64,000 bases of DNA from Minisyncoccia bacterium (GCA_049651785.1 JBASCT010000025.1:5563-69562); one strand, 5' to 3'. Counted from the first letter of the stretch, positions 37,205 through 61,313 are shown. Notes: generated by a model not told the origin, from the letters alone. Numbers and translations are program-made.

Positions 37205-37310
37205 AGATAAGGGAACGGAGCGCGCTTAGGTGACGCTCCAGGTTACTTTTAAAAATGTTCCCTTCATCCATTATAACTCTTTTGGAACCAAAAAAGTTGC
37301 ACGACTTCGG

Positions 37311-37566
37311 AGCCAAGATCGGGGATCGAACCCGAGACCTCATCCTTCGCTTACACCTCTTTTTCTTTTTATAAGAGGGCTAGACTGTATCTTCCACTCA
37401 CCGGCTAAGGTGAGTAGCTCTTGTCAGTCGTTCGGGCGCTTAGCGCCACGGTCTGAACCTGTTAGGGCCTTTAACCGTTATTCGAGATTCACTCAAAAAT
37501 TACTTTCTAAGTGGGCAGGATTAGCGATCCACCATGGATGTGCTCTACCAACTGAGCTATCTTGGC
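37311..37566 (-). tRNA. tRNA-Thr(GGU) split by a 183-nt intervening sequence between nucleotides 36 and 37
   Basis: Exon 1 is GCCAAGATAGCTCAGTTGGTAGAGCACATCCATGGT. Exon 2 is AAGGATGAGGTCTCGGGTTCGATCCCCGATCTTGGCT. Joined, they give a canonical Thr(GGU) cloverleaf. Confidence 0.7.
37348..37530 (-). other. Intervening sequence, candidate group I-type self-splicing intron
   Basis: The 5' exon ends in U and the intron ends in G. R-like GGTTCAGACC and S-like AAGATACAGTCTAG elements are present. Contains GCGCCCGAACGACTG, which is shared with the palindromic repeat family. Confidence 0.5.
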
Positions 37567-37590
37567 GCTTATTGGTACCACAAAATAATA

Positions 37591-38184
37591 TTACAATGAG
37601 GGAAAGTTTTCAATCAGACTATCAAACATTTTTTTAAGTTTAGTGTTATTAAAATAAACAGTTAAAACGCCATATTGATTTTTATTCCTATAACTTCCTG
37701 TCCCGCGAGACGGTGTAATTATAATCTTCTGAAATTGTGATTTTCTTACGCCAAGCTTATTCATCCAAAATCTCTGAGCTGCCACAGGAGAAATGTCAGA
37801 AAATATTTGGAGTCCAAATTTTAACTTATCTTTATCTATTCCATATATTTTATTTAAAAACGTCATATAGGCCATTATGAGTCTCGGATCAACATTGCCT
37901 AATCTTATTGAGTTTTTGTTTCTTTTGTTCCCTTCTCCCCAGAATAAGCCTATACCTAGCCCAAAAAGTTGCCATTCATCCTTAGTTTTTGGTGGTTTGA
38001 AAATAAAGGGATCGCCTTTTGGATTATATCTAAGGTATGTGGCGTCTGATATAGATCTTTTGGGGATTTTGTATTTAGAAATCCAATAATTTATTTTGTT
38101 TTGAGAAACTCCTGTTTTCCTAGCTATTTCTGCAACAGACAACTGTTTTTTTAAATACCATCTCCTTAGCTTACTTTCATTCAT
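37591..38184 (-). CDS. Putative freestanding homing endonuclease (LAGLIDADG-like GLFWGEGN motif) with an N-terminal HTH
   Basis: About 33% GC against about 50% for the genome. HTH LSVAEIARKTGVSQ. Immediately upstream of the intron-containing tRNA. Confidence 0.4.
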   Translation of the reverse strand: MNESKLRRWYLKKQLSVAEIARKTGVSQNKINYWISKYKIPKRSISDATYLRYNPKGDPFIFKPPKTKDEWQLFGLGIGLFWGEGNKRNKNSIRLGNVDPRLIMAYMTFLNKIYGIDKDKLKFGLQIFSDISPVAAQRFWMNKLGVRKSQFQKIIITPSRGTGSYRNKNQYGVLTVYFNNTKLKKMFDSLIENFPSL

Positions 38185-38229: not shown

Positions 38230-38649
38230 CTAAGCCCTTTTGGCAAAATAATTTTTGAGCGTCTCCGTAATCCTATGGCCCCCGGGTGGCAGGTCGCGCA
38301 GATCTTTTTCACCAACCCAGCGGAAAGAGTTGTGCTCGCTACTTAAAACTACCTCCCCCGACTTGTATCGGGCGAGGTAAACTATCATAAAAATCTTTTT
38401 GTCGGCATTTCGGTGCTCCTTGGCGAAGCTCGATATCCAGGAAGCTACCGGCCCACCCGCCTCAATTTCAAGACCCGTTTCCTCTCTCACCTCTCTCTTG
38501 AGGGCCTCTATATGGTCGGTCTCCCCCGCCTGCACCTTGCCACCGGGTAAGTCGAGGAGCCCTCCGCCCGAGCGCGTTAAAACCAGCACCTTGCCGTCTC
38601 TTTCTATGAGTGCCTTCTGTCCGACAAAAAATACTTCGTCGTTGTTCAT
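38230..38649 (-). CDS. NUDIX hydrolase
   Basis: Nudix box GGKVQAGETDHIEALKREVREETGL. Confidence 0.8.
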   Translation of the reverse strand: MNNDEVFFVGQKALIERDGKVLVLTRSGGGLLDLPGGKVQAGETDHIEALKREVREETGLEIEAGGPVASWISSFAKEHRNADKKIFMIVYLARYKSGEVVLSSEHNSFRWVGEKDLRDLPPGGHRITETLKNYFAKRA

Positions 38650-38654
38650 TCGAG

Positions 38655-38728
38655 CGCGGCCAACCGGACTTGAACCGGCAACCTCTCCCGTGACAGGGGA
38701 GTGCTCTAACCAGTTGAGCTATGACCGC
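38655..38728 (-). tRNA. tRNA-Asp(GUC)
   Basis: GCGGTCA acceptor, anticodon loop CTGTCAC, T-loop TTCAAGT. Confidence 0.85.
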
Positions 38729-38958
38729 AATTTTAATTTTAGATATCTTCTTCCAGCGGCGCTTTTTAAATACAATTCTCGCTTGCGCGCCACCTCAAAG
38801 GTATCATGTTTTTCGGTATAAACAAGACGAATACCGGACATTTTAGAAGTGGTCAGAGTCTTGCCTCCCCCATGCTCATTAAGACGCCTTGCAAGATTGT
38901 TGGTAAGTCCTTTATATAACTTACCTTTATTGTCCCGTAATACGTAAACGACGTACAT
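38719..38958 (-). CDS. GIY-YIG nuclease family small protein (YhbQ/YazA-like), 79 aa
   Basis: YVVYVLRDNKGKLYKGLTNNLARRLNEH. The 3' end overlaps tRNA-Asp by 10 nt. Confidence 0.7.
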   Translation of the reverse strand: MYVVYVLRDNKGKLYKGLTNNLARRLNEHGGGKTLTTSKMSGIRLVYTEKHDTFEVARKRELYLKSAAGRRYLKLKLRS

Positions 38959-38970
38959 AAATAAGTGCTC

Positions 38971-38998
38971 CCCGCCCGACTGAAGTCGTTCGGGCAGG
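38971..38998. repeat. GC-rich palindromic element copy, CCTGCCCGAACGACTTCAGTCGGGCGGG
   Basis: 28 nt. Shares GCCCGAACGACT with the tRNA intron and with the pilin-leader copy. Confidence 0.75.
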
Positions 38999-39011
38999 TA
39001 ACCAGTTGAGC

Positions 39012-39043
39012 CCCGCCCGTACCGAACGGTACGTTCGGGCGGG
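39012..39043. repeat. GC-rich palindromic element copy, identical to the tRNA-Asn copy
   Basis: CCCGCCCGAACGTACCGTTCGGTACGGGCGGG. Confidence 0.8.
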
Positions 39044-39095
39044 TATGACCGCAGTGCACTACAAAGTACCAGATTTTTTGGGCTTTATCAATTTG

Positions 39096-39166
39096 TGCCG
39101 GCAAATGGAATCGGACCATTGTTTGAGGCTTATGAGTCCTCCGTTCTACCATTGAACTATGCCGGC
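39096..39166 (-). tRNA. tRNA with CAU anticodon, elongator Met or Ile2 (lysidine), with an atypical T-loop
   Basis: GCCGGCA acceptor, loop CTCATAA, G1-C72 paired, T-loop TCCGATT (C55 in place of U), 31-39 A/G mismatch. Confidence 0.55.
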
Positions 39167-39231: not shown

Positions 39232-39305
39232 AGCGGGTTGGAGGAGTAGTACCTCGACAGGCTCATAACCTGTAGGCATCCGTGCAAATCGGATACCCGC
39301 AACCA
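39232..39305 (+). tRNA. Initiator-like tRNA-fMet(CAU)
   Basis: A1/A72 mismatch, A11:U24, U8, loop CTCATAA, CCA encoded, unusual T-loop TGCAAAT. Confidence 0.5.
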
Positions 39306-56610: not shown

Positions 56611-57483
56611 TCATATTCCTATTTTCCAAACTCCCTTCTCGAGAAAAGCTTCAATGGTCTGCCTAGTTGCTTTATTGATAAGATTTGAGTGGGATGTCTT
56701 TTGAGATTTTGCATAATCAACTAAAGTCACAATTTTCTTCCCTTCCAAGTACGCCAAACGTTTGTGATAACTATTGGTCAGAGCTTTCGCGACTATCTCT
56801 TCCATTATTTCTGTTTTACCCTTTTCATCAAATTCCTTAAAAGCATCGTAGTACTTCGCTCGGTCGATGAATTTAATATTGATTGGCACAAAACCTTCTC
56901 TGATTAAAAGATAGTTATTGAGCACACGACCAATGCGTCCGTTACCGTCTATAAATGGGTGGGTGTATTCAAACGCGAGGTGCAGTTTTGCAATCCTCTT
57001 CACAACACTCTTATGATTACTTGCGTTATATTCCGCAAGCATTGTCTCTAGTCGCCCTACAACTTCTCGCGCATGAGGCGCAATGTGGCTACCGACACGT
57101 ACTCGCTCATCCCCCTCACGAAATCGTCCTGCGATATCGTCACGGATATTTGAGATGAGCATTTTATGAAGCGAAAGCATGACGTCGAGTGTCAATTCTT
57201 GTTCTTTCGCTCGTTTATCAATATATGAAACAACTTTTGCAAGGTTTTTTGCTTCAAAAATTTCTCGTTGGTTGATAAACCGATCGAGGTCAATCTGAAG
57301 TAATATCTTTTCCGTTTCTTCTAGTGTGAGCGTGCTGTTTTCGATTGCGTTTGAGTTGTACACCTGCTCTGGTATCTCTGCCTCGTTGACAAGCTTAATA
57401 ACCGCCTCTTTTCCCATAGAAGCTTTGTAGTAACGCTCACGAAGAGTATTGATTTTGCTAAATACTGCCGGTGTCTTTGCCAT
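56611..57483 (-). CDS. Fic/Doc family protein
   Basis: Fic motif HPFIDGNGRIGR. Confidence 0.85.
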   Translation of the reverse strand: MAKTPAVFSKINTLRERYYKASMGKEAVIKLVNEAEIPEQVYNSNAIENSTLTLEETEKILLQIDLDRFINQREIFEAKNLAKVVSYIDKRAKEQELTLDVMLSLHKMLISNIRDDIAGRFREGDERVRVGSHIAPHAREVVGRLETMLAEYNASNHKSVVKRIAKLHLAFEYTHPFIDGNGRIGRVLNNYLLIREGFVPINIKFIDRAKYYDAFKEFDEKGKTEIMEEIVAKALTNSYHKRLAYLEGKKIVTLVDYAKSQKTSHSNLINKATRQTIEAFLEKGVWKIGI

Positions 57484-57491
57484 ATATCATA

Positions 57492-57519
57492 AGTATAGCT
57501 ATTTTCACGCTTTTGTCAA
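57492..57519 (-). promoter_or_regulatory. Promoter TTGACA-16-TATACT for fic. The -10 lies about 8 nt before the ATG, so the mRNA is probably leaderless
   Basis: Read on the reverse strand. Overlaps a 14-bp direct-repeat copy. Confidence 0.4.
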
Positions 57520-57565
57520 CATAATCGTGAAAATCACTGAAAAATCTCGCTTTTTCACGCTTTTG
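57502..57565. repeat. Two 14-bp direct repeats TTTTCACGCTTTTG (57502-57515 and 57552-57565) plus an inverted half-site CGTGAAAA (57526-57533)
   Basis: Exact copies 50 bp apart in the fic upstream region. Operator-like. Confidence 0.6.
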
Positions 57566-57825
57566 ACTATAATTCCCCCTTAGGCATTCTTCAGCGCCTC
57601 AATATCGATCTTCTTCATACTAAGCAGTTTCTCCCACGCCTTTGGTTTGAGTATGAGCTTTTCAATATTTTCCGGATTAATTTGCCACGAGAGACCGTAC
57701 TTATCCTTGCACCAGCCACACTTTTCCCTTAAACCATAAGTTCGGTGTTATTTTTTGCATAAGGATATTTTACTACTTTTAAAGCCGAGAGACCTTTCTT
57801 ATATAGAGAAAAGGTTGAATTTGTG

Positions 57826-58233
57826 TTAGTTTTTATCTCTAAGAAGTTTTTTTCCAAGATTTACTAGCTTATTTGTAAGTCCTGTGCCTTCCAAAATTTG
57901 TTTTTTTAATGCATTAATGTCTGTTGGGTTCAAACTTCCAGTTATAGGAAAGTTTTCCCATTTTTCTACGTGTTTATCGGAGTTGTGCAGATGGGCTGCA
58001 AGTCCTTCAAAATCACGACTTGTTAGTATCACATAGGCAAGTACGGGCGCATTAATGTCATCGGTGTGAAGCTTTTTTTCGTATTTTTTAGTAAGGTTTC
58101 TAACAATATTTGTTGCATCTTCATTAAGAATCTTTGCAACATGATATTCATCATTTTCTACGTCTGAAAACAACCAAACATACGGGTTTCCTTTAAACAA
58201 GAATACTTGTCCGAAGGTTATAAGCGGACCCAT
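57826..58233 (-). CDS. Hypothetical 135-aa protein, candidate toxin partner of the Panacea-domain gene
   Basis: Starts 3 nt after the Panacea gene stop. About 33% GC. No homolog recognised. Confidence 0.45.
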   Translation of the reverse strand: MGPLITFGQVFLFKGNPYVWLFSDVENDEYHVAKILNEDATNIVRNLTKKYEKKLHTDDINAPVLAYVILTSRDFEGLAAHLHNSDKHVEKWENFPITGSLNPTDINALKKQILEGTGLTNKLVNLGKKLLRDKN

Positions 58234-58236
58234 ATC

Positions 58237-58779
58237 TTACACAGCTATTTTTAACGCGGCTTCAATGTCTTCCTTTTCAACAAAGCTGTCCTTGTCATCA
58301 GCACCAAGTTCGTATGGTATAAACTCACCAAGTTTTGTTTTTAGCCACGCCGATTCATTGTGAGACGCTTCTTCGATTTGCTTTCCAGTACTATCTCTAA
58401 AAATCTCACAAACCTCTTCCATTACTTTGAGTTCGCTTTTAGTAAAGTATTCTGCATCTTTTGGAGTGAATTTTCTCTTGACTAGTATTTTTTTCATTTT
58501 GCTATCCTCTCTTTCAACCACTGAAATCGTGTCACCCAAAACTGAGTTATCAATATCAGTTTCCACAGAATTAACCAAATTCATGATTGCAGAAGGAACT
58601 GGCCCGTGCTCCAAATTCACGTAGTTATCACTTGTTATGGGTGTTAAATATTTTTTTACGTGCCGAAAATCCGCAAAGTAAAAGAGCTTCATGAGCTTTG
58701 TTTTCCCCATCAAATTTGGGTCTGTGTAAGTAGCGAAGTAAAGAATCATCTTTTTTACCTTCGCTTGTGATATTTTCAT
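58237..58779 (-). CDS. Panacea (DUF4065, SocA-like) domain protein, candidate antitoxin
   Basis: KLMKLFYFADF...LEHGPV motif typical of DUF4065 as I recall it. Confidence 0.55.
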   Translation of the reverse strand: MKISQAKVKKMILYFATYTDPNLMGKTKLMKLFYFADFRHVKKYLTPITSDNYVNLEHGPVPSAIMNLVNSVETDIDNSVLGDTISVVEREDSKMKKILVKRKFTPKDAEYFTKSELKVMEEVCEIFRDSTGKQIEEASHNESAWLKTKLGEFIPYELGADDKDSFVEKEDIEAALKIAV

Positions 58780-58973
58780 CTATAAATTGCCTTGCGCTCG
58801 ATGCGCTTATTATAACATTAACGAGTCAAAGTGGGTTGTCCACAATACAGATTTTTGTTGAAAAGTCAAGCCATCTACGAATGGATTTTGCCGCCAAGGA
58901 TCATAAGTGGACAAAACGCACAAATAGTAAGTAGCCGCCGAACTTTTCCTGCTAGCATTTCAGGGGATTTATA

Positions 58974-61313
58974 TTAGAACTTCAGCTCTTCCCAATCACT
59001 CCAATCGTTTCGCTCGCACCTGCCCCAATCGTACTTATCTTTCTGATTTATTTTCCACCTTCCATTTTTCTCTATCGCAATACCGCCAAAAAGTTTTTTG
59101 CCTTTCTTATTTTGCTCTTTGATATATTCCTGCAATTTTTCGGCTTTTGCTTTTGTGTATGTCGTTCCGTCGCGATCTCCGGCAGCCTTCGTTTCAAACA
59201 TTCCAATCTGTCCGTTGGCAAATTGCACGAGATAATCGGGGTAAAAAGTATGTATCACGCCTTCGGGATATTCATACTTTATACCAAAATAATCTTTCTT
59301 GTTTTCGCCGTTCTTCCACCACCAAACTATTTTCCCCGGATTCTCGTTCAAAAACTTTTCAAACTGCCTCTCTGGGTCTAGCCGGGTCGCGCTCAAATAA
59401 CATGGTTCATAAACATACTTTTTACCCTCCGCGATCTCATCCGCGTATTTGTTGAAAAAACTTTCCGGCGCAACATCAAATTCATACCATTGTTCGCTTT
59501 CCTCAACTCGTTTTTTTATCTCTTTTTCGCGAATTGTTTTATATGCTTCAATCGCGTCAGTCAAAATCGCCTCAAACTGCTTTCTGTTTCCATTGTGCAG
59601 GAAAATCATCTGCACGAGAATTGCTTCCTCCGGCCATTCTTTTGCGCCGAGATACTTCCTAAACCACGAATAAATCGCTGTCTTTACTTTCGGCACTGAT
59701 CGCTTAATGTTTTTGAATGAGCCAAGATTGTTTTTGATAGTTTGCTCAAACAATGCCTGTAAGTCGTTGCCTGCGATTGTAAGGCGGGCAAAATCTGCGG
59801 AGCTGATCTTTCCCTCAATTTCATCAAAACTTTTTCCCTCAATTTTAGCGTTAGCGATTATATCTTGCTGATATTTTGTGATATCAAGCACCATGCCCGC
59901 GCGCTCCATTTTTTCCGTATTTTGCGCAAACAAAGTGTGGTCTCCTTTCAAATCAAAATGTATGCAAGCCGTTCTCTCAAACACTGGAGTAAAACTTGAT
60001 GTAATGTCGCCGTAATCAGCGCGCGCCTTATAGTACGACACAAGTTTAATCGGCTTATACGCCGCCACACGGCCACTCTTGAGGTGTTTGATGATGTTAG
60101 GGTTATATTCTTCCTTTTTAACGATAATGCTTTGGACATTGGTATAGATATAGCCGACATTCAAAGGTTCGTTCGCATAGTGTTTCTGTTCGGGCATGCG
60201 CAAAATACGTCCGACGGTTTGGATTTCAAATGTCTCGCTGTGCGATTCGCGGAATTTCACCAAAATATGCGCGCGCGGACAATCCCAGCCGGTATCAATC
60301 GCTTGCTTGAAAATAAGAAACTCAATCTCATTGTCTAAATCTCTGACCCATTCATTTTTTGGGCCCAAGGCGGCCGACTTGTCGTCCGCCAGCCAAATCG
60401 CGAGCTTGCCATTTTTTTTGGTTATACCTTTGCGCGCCAAAAATTCCTTTACGGCTTTTATTTTGTCCTCTCCTGCTTCTGCTGTCGGTATTTGCACCAG
60501 CGCGAGCGGATTGACAATTGATTTCTCGGCTTCAAAAAGTTTCTTCAACTCCTTTCGTTTCTGATAAGCGGCTTCCAAAACCACTTCCTGCGAGTCGTTT
60601 TCGTCATCACTAATCTTGTCAATCCTATCGTTGATAACTAATTCTTTCTTTATCATGCCCTCGTCAATTACCTCTTTCGGCTCAATGAAAATAAATCCCG
60701 CCATACCGCGCGCCAAATCGCGCGGATCGGGTTGAATTTTTGGCGTCGCGCTCATTTCCAAAATAACATCGGCATTTATTTCCTCTCGTAATTCGTTAGT
60801 GCGTTCTGCTGTTGCTCCGATATGGCTTTCGTCAATAATCAAAATAACTTTTCGCTGTTCTCTCGTTTTCGCCATTACATCGCGAAAGTTTATTTTCTCG
60901 CCGTCCTTCATCAAAACATTTTTCCATTCGCCAGTTTCGCGGTCTTTACTTCGCAATTTTTCCCAATTTGCCACCACAACCTCGTTTCTGACAATTCGCT
61001 CCCGCCCGCCTGTAAATTCTTCCTCAACAAGCGAAACTCGCGGCGCGCCGCCAAAAAGTTCTTCCAAACTCCGCTTGCTTTGTAAATGCAAATCTCCCTT
61101 GCCGATACTTACCCACACAAAACATAAATCCTCATCAATCAGTTCTTTGATAATTTCTTCAATAAACTTGGCGGTCATTATCGTTTTACCACTTCCGGTA
61201 GGAGCTTGAAAAACGCAAACTTTTTTATTCCCTTCTTTTTTAAGCAAGGTTTTGACTGCGGCGATAAGTTCGCCAACCGCTGTTTCCTGATATTGTTTTA
61301 AGTTAATATTCAT
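58974..61313 (-). CDS. res: Type III restriction enzyme Res subunit (SF2 helicase/endonuclease)
   Basis: Walker A QAPTGSGKT, motif II IIDESH, helicase C region. Confidence 0.8.
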   Translation of the reverse strand: MNINLKQYQETAVGELIAAVKTLLKKEGNKKVCVFQAPTGSGKTIMTAKFIEEIIKELIDEDLCFVWVSIGKGDLHLQSKRSLEELFGGAPRVSLVEEEFTGGRERIVRNEVVVANWEKLRSKDRETGEWKNVLMKDGEKINFRDVMAKTREQRKVILIIDESHIGATAERTNELREEINADVILEMSATPKIQPDPRDLARGMAGFIFIEPKEVIDEGMIKKELVINDRIDKISDDENDSQEVVLEAAYQKRKELKKLFEAEKSIVNPLALVQIPTAEAGEDKIKAVKEFLARKGITKKNGKLAIWLADDKSAALGPKNEWVRDLDNEIEFLIFKQAIDTGWDCPRAHILVKFRESHSETFEIQTVGRILRMPEQKHYANEPLNVGYIYTNVQSIIVKKEEYNPNIIKHLKSGRVAAYKPIKLVSYYKARADYGDITSSFTPVFERTACIHFDLKGDHTLFAQNTEKMERAGMVLDITKYQQDIIANAKIEGKSFDEIEGKISSADFARLTIAGNDLQALFEQTIKNNLGSFKNIKRSVPKVKTAIYSWFRKYLGAKEWPEEAILVQMIFLHNGNRKQFEAILTDAIEAYKTIREKEIKKRVEESEQWYEFDVAPESFFNKYADEIAEGKKYVYEPCYLSATRLDPERQFEKFLNENPGKIVWWWKNGENKKDYFGIKYEYPEGVIHTFYPDYLVQFANGQIGMFETKAAGDRDGTTYTKAKAEKLQEYIKEQNKKGKKLFGGIAIEKNGRWKINQKDKYDWGRCERNDWSDWEELKF

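Follow-up and report, generated by a model that had tools for sequence, protein, structure and literature searches.

The window analysed here is a 64,000-nt stretch of a Minisyncoccia bacterium genome (GCA_049651785.1, JBASCT010000025.1:5563-69562). On its minus strand lies a free-standing open reading frame (ORF, 37591..38184) that ends directly upstream of a split tRNA-Thr(GGU) gene. We suggest that this ORF is a LAGLIDADG-fold homing-endonuclease gene, either current or recent and free-standing at tRNA-Thr, and we put the probability of this reading at roughly 0.55, nuclease activity being predicted. A more specific proposal is that the endonuclease would target the insertion site of the tRNA-Thr intron, as in the collaborative homing of an endonuclease with an ORF-less intron. 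This we advance tentatively, as a possible but doubtful refinement.

Sequence and predicted fold of the ORF protein

A first-pass annotation of the window had described a 197-aa ORF of low GC content, and the ORF was found as described. Its GC content was 0.32, against 0.52 in the flanks, and the 1-kb GC profile dropped to 0.41 at 37-38 kb. The same annotation had proposed an N-terminal helix-turn-helix (HTH), and this was supported. The AlphaFold model placed helices at residues 3-53, and HTH_23 was matched in 43 of 54 homologues. Searches of Pfam and NCBIfam with the ORF protein itself gave HTH matches only, all of them sub-threshold and within residues 6-55 (HTH_Tnp_1, E 1.7e-4; MerR_1, E 3e-4). 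In PHROGs the HTH stretch matched phage families named 'HNH endonuclease' (E 5.7e-7). The HTH alone also matched the small 'mad1' model of PADLOC, which was uninformative.

The annotation's single LAGLIDADG-like motif, LFGLGIGLFWGEGN (residues 73-86), fell within a single domain predicted to have the LAGLIDADG fold. AlphaFold confidence was high both for the full protein (pLDDT 87.4) and for residues 58-197 (pLDDT 88.2). In the predicted structure the motif helix packed on a beta-sheet saddle, which is the LAGLIDADG core fold, and the motif G75-x-G77-x-G79-L-x-W82-G83-E84-G85 lay where the first helix in the C-domain ends. Judged on this model, the assignment to the LAGLIDADG fold is sound. 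Residues G75, G77, G79, W82, G83, E84 and G85 were invariant across the 54 homologues, whose alignment had a mean column identity of 57% and 30 invariant columns. The acid of the motif, E84 (W-G-E-G), stands at the metal-ligand position by LAGLIDADG criteria. Since only one LAGLIDADG-fold domain was present, a nuclease of this kind would have to dimerise.

A patescibacterial family adjoining tRNA-Thr

A family search seeded with a word pattern recovered 633 proteins. The family spanned 558 or more species genomes, virtually all from Patescibacteria, and formed about 80 full-length clusters at 50% identity. Record titles were nearly all from this phylum (Paceibacterota, Moranii-, Wolfe-, Kaiser-, Yanofsky-, Lipton-, Doudna-, Roizman-, Peri- and Saccharibacteria). 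Our literature search found no description of the family or of its linkage to tRNA-Thr.

We fetched 82 loci, which together with the window made a set of 83. A tRNA-Thr gene lay immediately downstream of the ORF in all 83 (GGU in 82 and CGU in one), and this adjacency is far beyond chance. The junction was precise, the stop codon of the ORF being the tRNA's own U8-A9-G10 in 28 of 81 loci. Among the ORF-linked tRNA-Thr(GGU) genes, 58 of 82 (70%) contained an intron of 169-229 nt. In these 58 loci the ORF stood outside the intron-bearing gene and the neighbouring intron was itself ORF-less, the arrangement known from free-standing homing-endonuclease genes.

More distant members of the family had similar addresses. 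Two (P0185 and P0228) were found directly 5′ of tRNA-Thr(CGU), one (P0264) was found 5′ of tRNA-Thr(UGU), and a frameshifted variant with three HTH modules (P0137) lay between tRNA-Gly and tRNA-Thr(GGU). A 232-aa paralog with an HTH and a GLGLYWGEGYK domain (L092:5875-6921) was divergently oriented to a tRNA-Met(CAU) gene 49 nt away, which is interrupted by a group I intron of 231 nt (64.6 bits in Rfam). On that contig, tRNA-Thr(GGU) had neither ORF nor intron. The HTH module of the family, about 50 aa long, also occurred in 5-14 tandem copies in proteins of 400-820 aa (P0131, P0133, P0140 and P0186), and in P0186 six HTH repeats were followed by an HNH-like motif. Such tandem HTHs may constitute a modular DNA-reading array for nucleases.

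The tRNA-Thr(GGU) gene and its intron

The ORF was stated to abut a split tRNA-Thr, and it does: 24 nt separate its stop codon from the start of the tRNA on the same strand, and about 60 bp separate the stop codon from the intron site (median across loci, 36 bp). Default ARAGORN and Rfam runs missed the split gene. With introns allowed, ARAGORN reported a split tRNA at 37566..37309, miscalled as Arg(GCG). The acceptor stem reads GCCAAGA/TCTTGGC and the anticodon stem CATCC/GGATG, and the loop, A-U-G-G-U / A-A, identifies the gene as tRNA-Thr(GGU), with the spliced form GCCAAGATAGCTCAGTTGGTAGAGCACATCCATGGTAAGGATGAGGTC.... Exon 1 was identical in locus L001 and in nine metagenome loci.

The match of the window intron to the Rfam model Intron_gpI was weak (15 bits, E 0.14, in a 321-nt slice). 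Alignment of 57 homologous introns revealed conserved cores, and RNAalifold recovered helices P1, P2 and P4-P9 from it with many compensatory changes. The P1 pairs G34-C, G35-C and U36.G were invariant, as were P4 (ACGGU/ACCGU) and P7 (GACUG/CAGUC), and P2, P5, P6, P8 and P9 covaried richly. P3 was CUC/GAG in the window intron versus CCC/GGG in most introns. The alignment displays the features by which group I introns are recognised, namely a P1-P9 core, U.G pairing at the 5′ splice site, a P7 helix for the guanosine site and a terminal G. From these features, the window intron is predicted to be a compact, ORF-less group I ribozyme capable of self-splicing.

It is one of the already known 'divergent group I introns', a class described at position 36/37 of Patescibacteria tRNA-Thr(GGU), with the same miscall of Arg(GCG) by ARAGORN and the same failure of RF00028 (PMC13011429). 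The window intron resembles the published ones in insertion site and in both of these annotation failures. In that study, the tRNA-Thr(GGU) intron was present in 3 of 95 complete Patescibacteria genomes, namely GCA_001029635.1, GCA_016700375.1 and GCA_030583745.1, most tRNA introns of the phylum were without homing endonuclease genes, and limited horizontal spread was inferred (PMC13011429). No endonuclease genes were reported inside these introns, and the conserved gene directly upstream goes unmentioned there.

The promoter-like element TTGAAA-17-TATTAT, which overlaps the 3′ end of the ORF, is probably the promoter of tRNA-Thr, judging from sequence. In a consensus scan, promoter-like sites were no more numerous in the region than in shuffled sequence.

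Residence, loss and decay among relatives

Scanning metagenomes for the exon-1 pattern of the tRNA yielded 120 loci, nine of which had an exon 1 identical to that of the window. Syntenic relatives sharing this exon were 75-76% identical to the window in prfB and 70-74% identical in GatA, and their contents varied. Both ORF and intron were present in L134, where exon 1 is identical to the window's. The intron was present and the ORF absent in L193, a syntenic locus (GatA 70% and prfB 76% identical to the window), and in L155, where a remnant of about 35 nt from the 3′ end of the ORF persisted. Both were absent from L128, L154 (prfB 75%, sigma 69%), L114, L129 and L153. L128 kept a remnant of about 85 nt in which the last 20 codons were 90% identical, and in L153 a small GIY-YIG gene occupied the position of the ORF. 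L125, covered for only 71 nt upstream, lacked the intron and had a GIY-YIG-like gene fragment at the contig edge in that same position.

Introns without the ORF were found in L093, L200 and L179 as well, and in L095 and L103 the ORF was truncated to its C-terminal half. The remnants in L128 and L155 coincided with the promoter-like stretch, and it is plausible that this piece was retained because it holds that element. ORF-less relatives, remnants and truncated copies together indicate that the gene is dispensable and decays, and is not essential. The life cycle of a homing endonuclease predicts such a mixture, among close relatives, of alleles that are intact, decaying or empty.

A different origin, in which the ORF, like the GIY-YIG gene at tRNA-Asp, had inserted into a tRNA gene with duplication of its 5′ half, was considered and rejected. 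Local alignment of each locus's exon 1 with the 260 nt upstream of the ORF detected an exon-1 signal in 9 of 79 loci, and these are likely to be genuine neighbouring tRNAs.

A possible partnership with the intron

If the ORF encodes a homing endonuclease, the enzyme would be a homodimer of a single-domain LAGLIDADG fold with an N-terminal HTH as an additional DNA-binding module. It would recognise the uninterrupted tRNA-Thr(GGU) gene, the likeliest site being the pseudo-palindromic anticodon stem-loop 5′-TCCATGGTAAGGA-3′ around position 36/37, and would introduce a double-strand break into intron-less alleles. Repair from an allele possessing both ORF and intron would copy in the ORF-less intron together with the ORF. 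The intron would then split the recognition site and so confer immunity, and would be spliced from the tRNA. After fixation the ORF could decay or be deleted, which would leave mixed states among relatives.

The composition of the anticodon stem is relevant to this proposal. The bases C30-C31/G39-G40 were kept in 56 of 57 intron-containing loci versus only 4 of 24 intron-less loci with the ORF (Fisher p 4e-14), an example of a natural variant stem being ACACAATGGTAATGTGT. Intron-less loci appeared at 15 or more separate places in the ORF tree and were often sister to intron-containing loci with the consensus stem. A single metagenome locus (L180) had the ORF beside an uninterrupted consensus site, and there the ORF was divergent, with WGEG replaced by ASHG and the acid lost. 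The inverted repeat naturally present in the anticodon arm is also suggestive, as it would suit a homodimer. Conservation of G39-G40 through P10 pairing was considered separately and found unconvincing. The guide-adjacent intron sequences (CCC, TCC, TTT and AAT) varied without matching the exon, and since they did not covary with the exon bases, P10 pairing offers no obvious explanation.

Points against the endonuclease reading and alternative explanations

Several observations weigh against a homing endonuclease at this locus, or against the intron site as its target; they concern the protein, its inheritance and its association with the intron.

The first-pass annotation had suggested a LAGLIDADG profile search as a check, and this search did not support it: none of Pfam LAGLIDADG_1, _2 or _3 matched the ORF protein at E<=1. 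LAGLIDADG_3 was matched weakly by 14 of 54 homologues, with a best E of 0.027 and none reaching threshold. Neither phmmer nor hmmsearch against PDB sequences, with full-length and C-domain profiles, gave a LAGLIDADG match, and hhalign gave none to I-CreI, using an approximate sequence of that enzyme. Foldseek searches of PDB with the two-domain model returned only spurious OmpA-like or IspF matches. The ORF protein is too divergent for any LAGLIDADG profile. The motif acid was invariant in 81 loci as well, a result that for L003-L082 arose partly by construction because the search pattern included the motif.

An ordinary HTH transcription regulator, whose resemblance to LAGLIDADG proteins would be a coincidence of modelling, would account for these negative searches, for profile matches restricted to the HTH and for the NCBI name of the protein, 'helix-turn-helix transcriptional regulator'. 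It would leave unexplained the invariant G-x-G-x-G-L-x-W-G-E-G at the end of the domain's first helix and the weak LAGLIDADG_3 matches among the homologues, and we consider it extremely unlikely.

The second set of points concerns inheritance. In a coarse transfer test on species-level representatives (25 loci, 300 locus pairs), no recent horizontal transfer was detected, ORF identity never exceeding prfB identity by more than 6 points. The two were correlated over the 300 pairs (Mantel r 0.63, 0 of 2000 permutations). Between the window and L001 the identities were 76% for the ORF, 74% for prfB and 60% for sigma, and between the window and L003 they were 72% for both the ORF and GatA. By this measure, horizontal spread of the gene was not supported. 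The GC content of the ORF tracked that of the host (r 0.78). The pattern resembles a long stay at the locus with vertical inheritance and purifying selection, and a purely selfish gene would not usually behave in this way. A signature of a selfish element, on the other hand, was that ORF GC content was below that of the flanks in 80 of 80 loci, by 9 points on average.

The main alternative to a homing endonuclease is a domesticated DNA-binding derivative, that is, a non-cleaving LAGLIDADG/HTH host protein such as a WhiA-like regulator of the tRNA-Thr/prfB cluster. Strong conservation, a rate and pattern of change like those of neighbouring housekeeping genes with no signal of transfer, the wide species distribution of the family and the overlap of the tRNA promoter-like element with the 3′ end of the ORF would all be compatible with domestication. 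However, the gene is dispensable, syntenic close relatives having lost it or retaining only deletion remnants or truncated copies, and its GC content is consistently below that of the host. The Glu at the catalytic position is kept, whereas WhiA is not known to retain its catalytic acidic residues, and the HTH module is one common to HNH-type nuclease-like proteins. On balance we regard domestication as unlikely.

The third set of points concerns the intron. The annotation had tied the gene to the intron-bearing tRNA-Thr. The ORF is indeed free-standing and linked to this tRNA gene, but in 24 of the 82 ORF-containing tRNA-Thr(GGU) loci there is no intron, and the members linked to CGU and UGU isoacceptors have none. 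In the small unbiased metagenome subset, the association between ORF and intron was only a trend (p 0.07). Four loci (L027, L065, L004 and L047) combined an intact WGEG with an uninterrupted consensus anticodon stem-loop and, under the simplest model, would cut themselves. Furthermore, it may be the ribozyme and not an enzyme that requires the conserved exon CC/GG.

These findings would fit a homing endonuclease directed at the 5′ part or flank of tRNA-Thr genes in general, the intron being an independent resident or hitch-hiker and neither a partner of the gene nor a source of immunity to it. The family occurs 5′ of tRNA-Thr(GGU), (CGU) and (UGU) with or without an intron, it meets the tRNA at a precise junction, with U8-A9-G10 as stop codon in the loci counted above, and intron-containing alleles may lack the ORF (L193, L093, L200 and L179). 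Against this, the intron, rare elsewhere (PMC13011429), is found in 70% of the tRNA-Thr(GGU) genes linked to the ORF, changes at 30:40 and 31:39 go with absence of the intron, and the paralog adjoins an intron-bearing tRNA-Met. A general 5′-flank target is a serious possibility, though rather unlikely.

The co-occurrence of the ORF with a small, divergent intron could also reflect a trans-acting maturase that assists folding or splicing of the intron in pre-tRNA-Thr. LAGLIDADG proteins can be maturases, as in the case of I-AniI and bI3. Such a role sits poorly with the retention of the ORF in the intron-less GGU loci and beside intron-less tRNA-Thr(CGU) and tRNA-Thr(UGU). In addition, the group I core of the intron is complete and covaries, and the intron persists without the ORF in L193, L155, L093, L200 and L179. 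We consider a maturase very unlikely.

A free-standing homing endonuclease at tRNA-Thr is the reading that we prefer, and a broader interpretation may be built upon it. HTH-LAGLIDADG genes might be an unrecognised, phylum-wide selfish class residing on tRNA-Thr, and might be the missing trans-acting factor for mobility or retention of those tRNA introns of Patescibacteria that seem 'endonuclease-less'. The homodimer would recognise the palindrome in the DNA of the anticodon arm, and the intron would be the antidote. Expression of the ORF would be self-limited because its stop codon lies inside the tRNA and would be removed by RNase P. Gene and intron would form an addictive pair resembling a toxin and its antidote, so that a reduced genome would keep both, vertically and for very long. 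As one joint reading this is speculative and, taken whole, improbable.

The GIY-YIG gene, tRNA-Asp and other features of the window

The coordinates of the features are listed in Table 1.

Table 1. Features at the tRNA-Thr and tRNA-Asp genes of the window.
Feature	Position	Strand	Description
Free-standing ORF	37591..38184	-	197 aa; HTH module ~3-53 and single LAGLIDADG-fold domain ~60-197 (predicted)
Motif GLGIGLFWGEGN	ORF residues 75-86		Contains putative catalytic E84
Promoter-like TTGAAA-17-TATTAT	37585..37613	-	Last codons and stop region of ORF, 19 nt before tRNA-Thr; 10/12 consensus matches
tRNA-Thr(GGU) exon 1	37531..37566	-	Positions 1-36, ends ...CATCC AUGGU; from sequence, ARAGORN with introns allowed and parsing
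ORF-less group I intron (predicted)	37348..37530	-	183 nt, between U36 and A37 of the anticodon loop; ends in G
tRNA-Thr(GGU) exon 2	37309..37347	-	Positions 37-73 plus CC; from sequence and ARAGORN with introns allowed
79-aa GIY-YIG ORF	38719..38958	-	Pfam GIY-YIG E 7.5e-13; last codons overlap 5′ end of tRNA-Asp
Pseudo-copy of first ~29 nt of tRNA-Asp	38960..39053	-	Upstream of GIY-YIG ORF; broken by two GC-rich hairpins

A GIY-YIG gene had been noted about 0.5 kb away at a duplication of tRNA-Asp, and both the gene and the repeats were confirmed. The GIY-YIG ORF lies 535 nt from the LAGLIDADG-fold ORF and overlaps tRNA-Asp (38654..38728). The partial duplication comprises two matching segments, 38707-38719 = 38999-39011 and 38720-38729 = 39044-39053 (direct repeats D2 and D4; inverted repeat I1), and one of the hairpins within the pseudo-copy is CCCGCCCGAACGTACCGTTCGGTACGGGCGGG. 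This layout suggests an insertion of the GIY-YIG gene into tRNA-Asp that brought with it a replacement for the 5′ part. The gene is context and not part of the LAGLIDADG unit.

Homologues of the GIY-YIG gene in two other loci (L153:8108-8329, 61%; L191:881-1111, 34%) ended 12-19 nt before an intron-less tRNA-Thr(GGU). Two nuclease families occupy one niche, directly 5′ of a tRNA. The first-pass annotation had inferred a hotspot of endonuclease-driven rearrangement of tRNA genes, and since small GIY-YIG genes recur 5′ of tRNAs in relatives, the clustering of nuclease genes at tRNAs has substance. The rearrangement was overstated: in place of a local hotspot we found an old arrangement conserved across Patescibacteria, in which ORF identity tracks prfB and GatA.

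Upstream of the LAGLIDADG-fold ORF lies a NUDIX hydrolase gene (38230-38649, minus strand) that matched the PADLOC candidate defence model PDC-S07 (E 9.5e-19). NUDIX homologues were found upstream of the ORF in L034, L042 and L053, and downstream of tRNA-Thr in L144. Two tRNA-Met(CAU) genes (39095-39166, minus strand; 39232-39305, plus strand) diverge from each other across a gap of 65 nt. The second, with the lower score (51.7 bits), has a mismatched first acceptor pair, as expected of an initiator tRNA. A 6-kb segment of the window (57000-63000), perhaps a foreign island, has a GC content of 0.38-0.41, compared with about 0.51 elsewhere in the window, and its GC skew is strongly negative. 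Outside the window, downstream of a tRNA-Thr(UGU) gene (L207:~830-1054), a tRNA-Tyr-like 5′ half (…GGCAGACTGT) is followed by group-I-like motifs and may be another intron-split tRNA.

Comparison with known systems

Patescibacteria have tiny genomes, yet they keep many self-splicing introns. Those of tRNA-Thr usually adjoin a gene of predicted endonuclease fold that is invisible to Pfam and is annotated as hypothetical or as an 'HTH regulator'. If the protein does cut intron-less tRNA-Thr genes, this would expose a systematic annotation gap across the species counted above, the account of how Patescibacteria tRNA introns persist would be revised, and a new compact, dimeric meganuclease scaffold specific for tRNA genes, with an accessory HTH, would become available.

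WhiA is a transcription factor with two degenerate LAGLIDADG domains and a C-terminal HTH, and has no linkage to tRNA genes. The protein described here differs from that type in having one domain and an N-terminal HTH, in retaining the Glu and in being encoded by a gene that is dispensable among close relatives.

Single-domain LAGLIDADG enzymes from rRNA insertions of CPR (= Patescibacteria), for instance I-ShaI, are active homodimers (PMC11270868). Like I-ShaI and enzymes of the I-CreI type, the ORF protein has one LAGLIDADG domain and would be expected to form a homodimer. It also shares with the CPR rRNA enzymes its phylum and a putative target in a highly conserved RNA gene. The genes of those enzymes, however, lie within the intervening sequence, and Pfam models detect the proteins, whereas the present gene lies outside the intron, has an extra N-terminal HTH and matches no LAGLIDADG profile.

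The closest parallel to the proposed partnership is collaborative homing. Free-standing endonucleases that cut intron insertion sites have been documented (PMC6083498, PMC2790892), and the known cases of collaborative homing are F-CphI, whose gene adjoins the intron-containing psbA in cyanophage S-PM2, and MobE / I-TevIII of T4 (PMC6083498, PMC2790892, PMC3984707). In these, the intron-less allele is cut at or near the insertion site, the intron provides immunity and both elements are co-converted (PMC6083498, PMC2790892, PMC3984707). As in F-CphI/psbA and MobE/I-TevIII, a free-standing, here putative, endonuclease gene adjoins a gene with an ORF-less group I intron. The phage systems involve protein-coding genes and enzymes that are Endo VII-like or HNH, whereas ours involves a bacterial chromosomal tRNA gene and a predicted LAGLIDADG fold. 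Unlike the phage examples, the present arrangement is conserved over hundreds of species, many of its members adjoin an intron-less tRNA-Thr, and cleavage is something that we infer. If the ORF protein cuts intron-less tRNA-Thr, this would be the first collaborative homing at a chromosomal tRNA gene found in the literature that we searched.
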